DNA of 64,000 nucleotides, from assembly GCA_049903315.1 (NCBI GenBank), contig JBNGBT010000004.1:192001-256000 (forward strand), read 5' to 3'. This document shows positions 21,525 through 24,500 of this stretch, piece after piece. Position 1 is the first letter of the stretch, and every line of letters starts with the position of its first letter. The position numbers are program-made. The stretch is from Candidatus Cloacimonadota bacterium. GTDB taxonomy: Bacteria; Cloacimonadota; Cloacimonadia; JGIOTU-2.

Positions 21525-24500
21525 AGAACGTATAGAAATGTAGCACAAGATTCCGATCTTATGTAAGTAAAAGAGATAGTCGTTCATTTTCTCCTTGATG
21601 AGAAAACGAACCAAATGAATCACACGCTGATCAAGAAAACACTAAAATTTCATTCATTCAGCTAAAAGAAAAGAACTTATTCTTCCGACACTTCGGAAGA
21701 ATTCAAACAGCTTTCCTTTTTTAACACCTCATTCACAAAATTTCTTAACGTGTTTTCTTAATAGGCGGGAATGGATAAGAAAAAATCAAATCCTCTCTAA
21801 ATAAGGGGAGTACGCCAACTGGCGGATACATCATCGCAGGTAAAGCCCAAAGAGATAGTTGCATAATTTAATAATGAAAATTCTAAAGAAGTAAAAATAC
21901 TCATGAATTTTAATCAATCGAAATTGAGAAATTATTGAAAAAGTAACGCATGATTCCAATCTTGCGCGATTCATAACTGAACTGAACACATTAATTATAA
22001 CGATGAGTCGGGTAAATAGTTGGAATTGAAATATAACTGAAAGATAATTATGTTCATTTTCTCCTTGATGAGAAAACGAACCAAAAGAATCACCCGCTGA
22101 TCAAGAAAACACTAAAATTTCATTCATTCAGCTAAAAGAAAAGAACTTGTTCTTCCGACACTTCGGAAGAACTCAGACAGCTTTTCTTTTTAAACGCTTC
22201 ATTCACAAAATTTCTTAACGTATTTTCTTAATAGGCGGGAAAGCAAATACCTGATCCTGACTGTATGATCTAAATTTTATTATGAGTTAAATATGTCGCT
22301 TAACGAATTTCTTGTATATTTGTTGAGGTTGTGGGACAACCCCGCGATTTTATTTCTTATTATTTATACAAATTTTTCATTCGCTGCAGAAGTTCATCAT
22401 TTTCAAGTAAGGCAACAGAATTTGTAATCTGATTTACTGATCCGATTTCAGATTTTATGTGCAGAATGGCTTTGTTCTTTATCTGTTTTTTTTATATGTC
22501 TTGCAAAAATTCCACCATTAATAACGAGATATGGTCTATCATAAAATTCAGTGACTTTAACTTTAAGGGGCTTGGTAATTTTTAAATTATTGTGCATGTG
22601 TGCAATACTTTCATATGCTTTCGAGAGATATTTTTCTCTTTCTTTCCAATTTTCAGAAGAGATAATTTTGTGGAAAAGAGGAGTGAGTTCTTTTGCTGAT
22701 CTTAATTGTGCCAAAGCAGTTCCAAACCATTTGCTGTAAGGCACATATTCTTTTTCCATTAAAAAGCAAAGTCTCATGAGTGACTGGACTAATCGAGCAG
22801 CAATAATGCGAGAACCTAACTCATCCTCCGCATCTCCGCATCTGCCGACAAAAGGTTCCTCTTCAGCAATGTTAGTCCATTCCGATGCAAGAAGGTAAAG
22901 CCAAATATCATGAGGATAATGTTTTGCGCATACGGCGGAATCAGCAGGATTCCGTCGTAAAACGAACAGCCAAACACCTGAGCCGGAAGGTTCAGGCAAA
23001 AAGCACTGACCAAACCAACTGACGACACGGCTGTTACACGAATTTTTAGTTATTAATCTCGAAAGAATTAGAAAAAAGCTAACCCTGGTAGCTGACTGGG
23101 ACAATGCCCCAGCCAACGACAGCACCTCGCTCTCCAAATAAATGGAGATCCAGGGAGTTGCTTTATTTTCTACGAATTTCATCTATTTGTTTTTTTGCGC
23201 AATGTTTTTTTTTCATCGAAAGACCATCACATATTTCAAAATTATCATTTCGCCATTCAATTTGATTGAAATTTGAAGTTCCTGGCACTTCTGAACCAAG
23301 GAAATACCTTTTATTATTATGAATAATGCCAAAATTTATCGAAGCAGAATCCGGTTTTCTATATAAACCAATTAGTTGTGGAGAACCTCCACAGTTTTTA
23401 TCTCTTATATTAAATAAAGTATCACAAAAACAATGAAAGACATTTCTACTGGTGCTTTTATTTACACCCTGTTGATATCTTTTGTAGTTCTCAATAAATT
23501 CTTGTCTACCAGAACCGAGAACAAATAGTAAATCTGATTGCATAGGCAAATTCATTGTTTCTCTTTTAGAAGTAATTGAGTTTGACCAAGTCATTTTATA
23601 ACATTTGAAATTAGGATAATTATTAACAATTGTGTCTCTGGTAATGTGCATTATGTTTACGATGTTACTTACCAATTTCGGATATTTTGAAAAAGAATGT
23701 GATATTTTTTCGAATACAAGTTTGTTTTTTTTATCACAATTTAGGGTTTTTGTAAAAAGAATATTGGAATCTATCATCTCGATTATTTGAGATAATACTA
23801 TTGATGGAAATAACACATCGCCAGAATAAGCTAATATTTCAGGATATTCTTTTGAGGAAAAAACTTTTTTACCATAATCAAATTTGGTTGTACTATTCCA
23901 TGTAAACCGGCTATCGCCAGCAATATATGCTGACGTTGGTCCGTGTGTGTCAACGCCTAACCAAGAAACGATTAAGGTCACTTTTATCTCCAACTAATTA
24001 CAAAATTTCGTGTAATGTTTTGCGTGTGCGGCGGAATCAGAATGATTCAGCCGAGACAAACAGCCCAAACCCTGAACCGGAAGGTTCAGGACAGAAGCAC
24101 TGACCAGCCCTACAGCCGACACGCTTGTTAAGTGCATCAATCCAAAACATCTCTTCCACTTGTATAAGTAACTTCAATTGTTTCATTGAAAACTAATTTT
24201 TGGCTATCACTTGTAAATGATCTTGCAGAAGAAGCCGGAGTTTCAGATAATAATGTTATTTGATCAGTTACCATATCCCAAACCATGAATTTAGAGAACT
24301 CATCTATATAGGCAAGTTTATTTCCGTCAGGAGAGATTTTAGGAAAGGTTCCTGAGAATAAATGTGAAACGGAATAGTTAGATGTATTGAGTAGATAAAT
24401 TTCATCATCGTCCTCAAAAACAACTTTTGATCTATCTTCGCACATTGATAATTGTATTAAAAATCCTTCATAAATGTATTGATTATTAGTACCATCAGTA

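Follow-up and report, generated by a model that had tools for sequence, protein, structure and literature searches.

The window, by which we mean the whole 64,000-nucleotide stretch analysed here, carries two copies of a repeat of about 190 nt in a spacer upstream of a gene that we take, from its translation, to be dnaX-like. The copies lie 470 nt apart, are 94.7% identical over 190 nt (Table 1) and sit at the distal end of an integron-like array, which has its own 120-nt spacer repeats unrelated to the element. A profile search of the genome (G000) recovered eight full copies (E <= 3.7e-31), two of them with an insert, and one stump (C11:19219), as a first-pass annotation had reported, together with a further head-only remnant (C11:38686). 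The two inserts resemble a second small repeat that sits nested within a bulge, and congeners carry inserts related to them.

All copies in this genome are intergenic, as had been stated, and their adjoining genes are unrelated and stand in every orientation. The absence of a matching Rfam family was likewise borne out, with eight weak matches in the window reaching at best 24 bits against a cut-off of 50, and with no family matched by the element at its gathering cut-off across 40 homologous loci. Matches to a group I intron (E 0.0012) and to plastid D5 (E 0.004) fell far below their cut-offs and were rejected, as was Flavo-1 (RF01705), whose model is not matched and whose one hit among the homologous loci falls on a neighbouring repeat. 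A leader role was also discarded, since the Shine-Dalgarno-like ATG in the head precedes unrelated sequence. The flanks of the copies share no common promoter or terminator, and promoter-like sites occur at chance level (6 vs. 4.7 +/- 1.8 expected); one such site directly precedes copy 2 on the plus strand, and copy 1 is without it. A look for RNA runs covering positions 21300-22500 gave none, which speaks neither for nor against transcription.

Table 1. Predicted features of the two window copies (positions within the window)
Feature	Positions	Strand	Remarks
Copy 1, whole element	21582..21769	-	one third-strand base changed relative to copy 2
Copy 1, rod	21620..21769	-	bulges 21741-21750 and 21642-21647; apex 21674-21710
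Copy 1, head (terminal hairpin, third strand, pseudoknot strand)	21582..21622	-	
Copy 2, whole element (rod, then 3' triple-helix pseudoknot head)	22052..22239	-	
Copy 2, rod of stacked covarying helices	22093..22239	-	
Copy 2, conserved 5' bulge motif CGTTAAGAAA	22211..22220	-	partner 22112-22117
Copy 2, apex, conserved internal loop around variable hairpin	22144..22180	-	variable hairpin 22150-22171
Copy 2, pseudoknot 5' strand	22089..22092	-	pairs with head loop
Copy 2, pyrimidine third strand	22082..22088	-	six Hoogsteen triples on purine arm, one C.G-C
Copy 2, terminal hairpin	22052..22081	-	pyrimidine arm 22070-22081, loop 22064-22069, purine arm 22052-22063

The folded strand and its architecture

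The element had been placed on the plus strand; folding energies and pair types instead indicate that the structured strand of both window copies is the minus strand. It folds 14-21 kcal/mol lower than its complement in all eight G000 copies, and the same strand is the lower one in 111 of 117 homologues with RNA parameters and in 103 of 117 with DNA parameters, the median asymmetry being 9.1 and 2.5 kcal/mol, respectively. On the minus strand G.T outnumbers A.C by 39 to 12 within this genome, where the poorly aligned C33 copy supplies seven of the twelve A.C, and by 62 to 11 across phyla. Shuffle z-scores alone (-4.27 vs. -4.00) do not separate the strands.

Read 5' to 3', this strand starts with a rod whose stacked helices contain two similar bulges and whose apex is an internal loop enclosing a variable hairpin; a T-rich linker follows, and then a terminal hairpin. 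In copy 2 the second bulge lies about 24 nt further inward than the first, and the bulge partner motif is found in 116 of 117 homologues. The apical internal loop has the consensus CTGTYTGAG / CGAGTT, in which we infer tandem G.A pairs, and both window copies depart from it in the 3' half. The covariation described previously also emerges when no model is fitted: in a plain MAFFT alignment of 27 copies drawn from several phyla, 87.7% of 813 cells pair (37-54% in slid controls), and both partners vary in 25 of 31 pairs; the related rows of this alignment inflate its shuffle control. Such covariation is evidence of selection on a folded single strand and not on RNA as such, a caution also voiced in PMC5737381.

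What had been read as a hairpin followed by single-stranded sequence corresponds on the minus strand to the terminal hairpin and third strand of a predicted 3' triple-helix pseudoknot, and the supposedly invariant single-stranded 9-mer occurs in five of the eight full copies and in neither window copy, its first base belonging to a covarying hairpin pair. Swap controls make it very probable that the 3' head is an H-type pseudoknot with a pyrimidine triple helix. Among 88 heads from 130 elements, the other 42 being headless by the rule used, the head loop pairs with the bases just 5' of the linker over a mean longest match of 4.58, against 3.69 +/- 0.10 when partners are swapped and a maximum of 3.95 in 200 swaps. 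The linker further matches the purine arm in parallel, with 5.13 triples against 3.87 +/- 0.09 in swaps, and a C.G-C triple falls in register in 22 of 69 heads, with several registers, against at most 12 in 2000 swaps. The pseudoknot stem would span 4 bp in copy 2, 4-6 bp in the G000 subfamily and 6-8 bp in many homologues, and the triplex would belong to class IV in the scheme of PMC4666352.

Distribution, mobility and vehicles

Contrary to the initial view of a family confined to Cloacimonadota, a 25-base pattern with two gaps matches at least 122 genome loci assigned by record title to Bacteroidota, Ignavibacteria, Campylobacterota, Desulfobacterota, Bacillota, Patescibacteria, Thermotogota and Lentisphaerae, as well as five viral loci; the search is exact and misses divergent copies, including both in the window. 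The spread is both cross-phylum and patchy. One of 200 other sampled Bacteroidia genomes carries the element, and within Cloacimonadota BLAST finds it in 12 of 232 genomes, mostly of one genus, the carriers including seven of ten congeners and two genomes that share the head alone. Copy number in five carriers is 39, 21, 8, 3 and 1. A short core pattern occurs in 42 of the 232 genomes, mostly by chance given a similar backwards control outside genus g1, and neither BLAST nor this core pattern, both applied without a covariance model, recovered the copy counts reported earlier for G001, G020 and G032, a result that does not refute those counts. When single copies were compared by BLAST with plasmid and phage records, no match was returned.

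We regard it as highly likely, from comparison of related genomes, that the element is a non-autonomous, gene-less mobile repeat of about 190 nt. Four G000 loci have an orthologous site that is empty in at least one congener, and among 20 metagenome loci of relatives, copies occupy sites vacant in G000 and one full copy stands where G000 keeps the head alone; four of the six MAFFT comparisons of relatives' sites are partly or wholly unalignable. One phage carries the element between its terminase and portal genes, a relative with a 99% identical portal is without it, and other phage relatives carry different repeats at that site. All of these filled and empty sites differ by compound indels, so that neither a clean junction nor a target motif can be read from them.

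The module also travels in unrelated surroundings. In Breznakibacter, where 29 of 39 copies have ends that were found, it lies inside a MITE that measures 314-316 bp in 19 of the 29 and is flanked by an 8-bp target duplication in 24 of the 29, a count that allows one mismatch and a one-base offset and is without a matched control. We take the ends of this MITE to be IS1595-like; the genome's own IS1595 has different ends. In Desulfobacterota a head-less rod lies between 20-25-bp inverted ends of another kind. Inverted ends with a target duplication occur in 9 of 110 loci overall, against 1-3 in swapped controls, and in G000 we found neither a divergent pair nor the terminal inverted repeats and target-site duplication of a TIR MITE, both of these remaining at the level of cross-pair controls.

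In Bacteroides luti 23 copies lie within 77 kb, and 20 of them form ten divergent pairs with their heads outward. Five of the ten enclose a gene named by Pfam as an Abi, toxin-antitoxin or ATPase-type gene; because similar small genes also lie between converging heads, the polarity of the unit rests on the array ends and on three cargo-less pairs. In provirus G437 one divergent pair surrounds two unnamed ORFs, oriented opposite to the phage genes. These pair counts (ten in B. luti, one in G437 and none in G000) are raw tallies, uncorrected for the orientations expected by chance.

DNA or RNA, and the readings weighed

GNA triloops, whose middle base is free to vary, make up 67 of 124 distinct apical loops, and a further seven are GNYA, four are GNRA and none is UUCG, numbers that overstate independence since the loci are related by descent; terminator-like hairpins taken as controls gave GNA triloops in 0/58 and 1/48. 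Two of the eight G000 copies have a GNA apical loop, and neither is in the window. The 5' extensions of the B. luti copies are strings of GNA loops, predominantly on the same strand (31/90 vs. 2/91 on the other). A stable DNA mini-hairpin is formed by GNA triloops only, although GTTA is accepted, and its melting temperature is 76.5 C, compared with 39 C for the RNA version that was tested (PMC13037366); on single-stranded DNA, loops of this type are found where primases and telomere proteins act, and they withstand nucleases as well as SSB (PMC4513846, PMC13037366). Since the apical loops follow this DNA rule, we prefer to see in the element an end structure of single-stranded DNA and not an RNA gene, and consider the selected molecule somewhat more probably DNA than RNA, even as RNA would accommodate the G.T wobbles, the tandem G.A pairs and the pyrimidine triples equally well.

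Taking together the fold, the strand, the mobility, the cross-phylum spread and the carriage by several vehicles that sequence comparison brings out, we tentatively propose a non-autonomous mobile repeat module whose fold is selected as single-stranded DNA capping 3' ends, and we hold the end-cap role itself with the same reserve. The minus strand would fold into the rod, with its conserved bulges and mini-hairpin apex, followed by the 3'-terminal, triplex-locked H-type pseudoknot, and as single-stranded DNA this fold would cap a strand at its 3' end, whether that strand is displaced, excised or incoming. The cap would resist exonucleases and SSB and might offer a priming or protein-docking site, such that a DNA piece ending in it would survive and re-insert more often; in a divergent pair, each strand of the cargo segment would receive a capped end. 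Since no enzyme gene recurs beside the copies and no one family tracks the carriers, we read the module as independent of any one vehicle; if host factors read it, or if it rides on several vehicles, it would not be expected to keep to a single enzyme family. Such a cap would account both for a tertiary structure that is conserved although the vehicles are unrelated and for the pairs whose heads point outward.

The same fold could serve a selfish element acting at the RNA level, in which read-through copies have their end protected by the triplex pseudoknot and bind a reverse transcriptase or host protein, leading to SINE-like spread or to a stable protein-binding RNA. Co-direction of the structured strand with the upstream gene at 40 of 59 loci (p = 0.009), together with the lack of a replication-strand bias (23/59, p = 0.12), fits read-through RNA, and the strand asymmetry is larger with RNA parameters. 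Triple-helix pseudoknots occur in RNAs, telomerase RNA being an example. The 3' tail is repeated in tandem in B. luti, and fragments in genus g1 are more often head-side (8) than 5'-only (4), a truncation polarity that is nevertheless weak. UG27 systems use rod-plus-pseudoknot RNAs as cDNA template (10.64898/2026.09.22.753630), with motifs that differ from those of the apex seen here. Against this reading, the structured strand bears GNA and GNYA loops, and RVT_1 is present in one of five carrier genomes, is not found in G000 (96% complete) and does not occur among the 150 + 52 neighbouring ORFs searched. On balance we think an RNA-level element rather unlikely.

Quite improbable, in our estimate, is a site for a dedicated single-strand nuclease or transposase of the REP/RAYT or Ssn kind, its gene unseen beside the copies and its divergent pairs forming a REPIN-like unit. 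Repeated single-stranded hairpins are indeed the substrates of Ssn nucleases and of HUH transposases, the transposases making use of base triples at the ends (PMC11893778, PMC6006769), and REP arrays occupy a fixed place downstream of TwoAYGGAY elements (10.64898/2026.09.22.753630). In G000, moreover, element segments are often bracketed, as judged by eye, by direct copies of other small, REP-like repeats; a k-mer test nonetheless gave only weak co-location (3/7 vs. 46/386 spacers, p = 0.04). Pfam analysis of 150 of the 158 nearest ORFs revealed no recurring enzyme, nor did that of 52 of the 125 ORFs around further copies, a single TnpB beside one locus aside; neighbour clustering returned no partner gene, and an IS1595 search no partner. 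The repeats that flank the four Y1 genes of G000 are of other kinds than this element, and Y1 is absent from three of five other carriers, B. luti with its 23 copies among them. Short stand-alone GIY-YIG frames occur in five of eight carriers, with no G000 copy near one, and a VapE-type family in two of eight. None of these four candidate families (RT, Y1, VapE-type and GIY-YIG) tracks the carriers, in draft genomes that may hide genes.

An ordinary MITE interior or attC-like site, with the fold a by-product of palindromic ends or shaped for a tyrosine recombinase, would agree with the module's place inside MITEs in Breznakibacter and Desulfobacterota, with the position of the window copies at the distal end of an integron-like array and with Flavobacterium chuncheonense, in which five copies on one strand occupy adjacent spacers. 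We consider it highly improbable: inverted ends with a duplication are confined to the few loci counted above, vehicle ends are unrelated where the module is conserved, the repeats of the window's array are unrelated to it, and palindromy does not yield a covarying triple helix as a by-product.

The reading of the first-pass annotation, a structured RNA gene family of this phylum, stands as regards multiple copies, conserved structure and the lack of an Rfam model, and its view that the copies are non-coding RNA genes of the host, transcribed one by one, is barely credible and largely refuted by polymorphism and spread: strong covariation, tandem copies and the promoter-like site before copy 2 on the plus strand speak for it, and against it stand the wrong strand, promoter-like sites that are at chance level, lack a counterpart at copy 1 and form no shared promoter or terminator, empty orthologous sites, the BLAST matches in so few genomes of the phylum, and homologues in unrelated phyla, phages and MITEs.

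Relation to known repeats

The closest relative by architecture is the extended TwoAYGGAY element, described as a long stem with a 3' pseudoknot, in divergent doublets and with upstream short repeats (10.64898/2026.09.22.753630). The present family shares the elongated basal stem closed by a 3' pseudoknot head and the variable copy number, and may share the divergent doublets and the short repeats upstream, but its apex is a single conserved internal loop that bears a mini-hairpin, in place of the two AYGGAY hairpins, and it resides in other phyla. The TwoAYGGAY model (RF01731) has no match in G000 or in the 40 homologous loci; a pattern for the head, on the other hand, matches 64 viral loci, and in six of the 20 of these that were scanned an RF01731 match lies just upstream of the head on the same strand. 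The head, by this pattern, is common to this family and TwoAYGGAY elements and caps other rods too, and the family is a sister form of extended TwoAYGGAY and not a member. The accessible text of that description makes no mention of a triple helix, and its supplements may show the head; it also proposes that TwoAYGGAY loops bind Csr/Rsm proteins, which counts against the DNA reading.

No description of the rod or of the triple-helix head was found in the literature, in a search drawn mostly from non-subscription sources, and what is new here is an uncatalogued form among the rod-plus-pseudoknot mobile repeats of which extended TwoAYGGAY is the example, not a Cloacimonadota RNA gene family. A triplex pseudoknot with covariation support ties this uncatalogued cross-phylum repeat to a long-unexplained Rfam family, and the spread of such repeats becomes testable with short oligonucleotides and harmless, cultured carriers. 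Should the fold indeed act at the DNA level, it would count as unusually elaborate for a natural structure of single-stranded DNA that selection maintains, and it would caution that 'new RNAs' called from covariation, where intergenic DNA is rich in repeats, may be DNA elements read on the wrong strand. We think it unlikely, though worth stating, that there exists a cross-phylum superfamily of single-stranded DNA structures with triplex pseudoknot ends and exchangeable rods, TwoAYGGAY being one type, which would capture genes independently of transposases, its divergent pairs capping defence and toxin-antitoxin cassettes that move between chromosomes and phages via host enzymes.

Further likenesses are partial. 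REP/REPIN-RAYT and SRM/NTS-Ssn repeats (PMC6006769, PMC11893778) are also intergenic, multi-copy, strand-specific hairpins that form doublets, are polymorphic between relatives and lie in repeat clusters; they measure 20-65 nt, in contrast to some 190 nt with tertiary structure here, and the element shows neither the short hairpin with GT[AG]G (GTAG-type) foot nor a flanked enzyme gene, whether a cognate Y1 gene or, among the neighbouring ORFs examined, a small GIY-YIG gene as in SRM-Ssn. The adjacent RT and loop motifs that mark UG27 RT ncRNA arrays and retrons are likewise missing. TM_ECO, PIT and BoxC (PMC4666352) resemble it as dispersed intergenic repeats with a predicted intrastrand triplex and no link to the function of their neighbours, and the element falls outside the TM_ECO/PIT triplex repeats as that source delimits them. 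With classical MITEs the Breznakibacter vehicle shares inverted ends and 8-bp duplications, and the G000 copies have neither.

In Streptomyces telomere overhangs, the phage G4 origin and plasmid ssiA (PMC4513846, PMC13037366), single-stranded DNA ends or origins consist of GNA-loop hairpins closed by sheared G.A pairs, which are nuclease resistant and read by priming proteins. The element may, by analogy, work in the same way; unlike those systems, it is internal in chromosomes and has no linked terminal protein or primase gene. Finally, the head-less rod of Desulfobacterota, with its inverted ends, is near in size to Chunjie of Geobacter, given as 178-235 bp with 21-bp ends (PMC3184786), a likeness drawn from the published description and not from sequence.

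Surroundings of the two window elements

In the integron-like array beside the two ~190-nt elements (see table), the tyrosine recombinase is followed by unrelated small genes with six copies of a 120-nt repeat between them, and the entire segment from the two elements through the integrase is absent from congener G212, where the flanking genes directly adjoin. The IS-end-like stretch next to copy 2 occurs once in the source genome, G000, and is found at the termini of nine contigs in another congener, G220. Each of the four Y1 HUH transposase-like genes of G000 carries its own REP-like palindromes on its flanks.

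Coordinates of the array, the IS-end-like stretch, the Y1 genes and the Bacteroides luti locus
Feature	Position	Strand	Remark
Integron-like array	window 22900-29480	minus	
Tyrosine recombinase of array	window 28413-29477	minus	Phage_integrase and SAM_4 domains
IS-end-like stretch	window 22246-22347		immediately adjoins copy 2
Y1 HUH transposase-like gene	C5:17388		G000
Y1 HUH transposase-like gene	C3:33721		G000
Y1 HUH transposase-like gene	C69:7139		G000
Y1 HUH transposase-like gene	C22:246761		G000
Bacteroides luti element array	G234:C22:60000-137000		L203-L207; 23 copies with mini-hairpin strings

Elements in Breznakibacter and Bacteroides luti

The Breznakibacter MITE (G232, loci L247-L278) is present in 39 copies, with a length of 314-316 bp in 19 and 8-bp target duplications in 24 of the 29 whose ends were found; a search of that genome for its transposase found none, and inserts of 60-75 nt are nested inside the head, the predicted 3' pseudoknot of the element. 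The Bacteroides luti array, which adjoins a polysaccharide locus, contains four AAA_14/DUF4143 genes together with Abi/TA, BT4734/VapE primase-helicase, HU and amidase genes. Elsewhere in that genome (L285/L288, C37), a 271-aa ORF, whose N-terminus we take to resemble sulfonamide-resistance dihydropteroate synthase, lies between two IS1595-type ORFs, one of them partial.

Heads on other rods and phage loci

Family f9 of Cloacimonadota (G119 and G120; L019, L020, L027, L028, L033, L035) has the element's head on another rod, itself present in multiple copies, and many further rod types bear this head at viral loci. The terminase-portal spacer of six related Mu-like phages (L217-L222) is a hot spot for repeat insertion, with a different small repeat in each. 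Two outward-pointing heads 40 kb apart flank a Mu-like phage region in genome G440 (L415, L416), an arrangement that may be due to chance.
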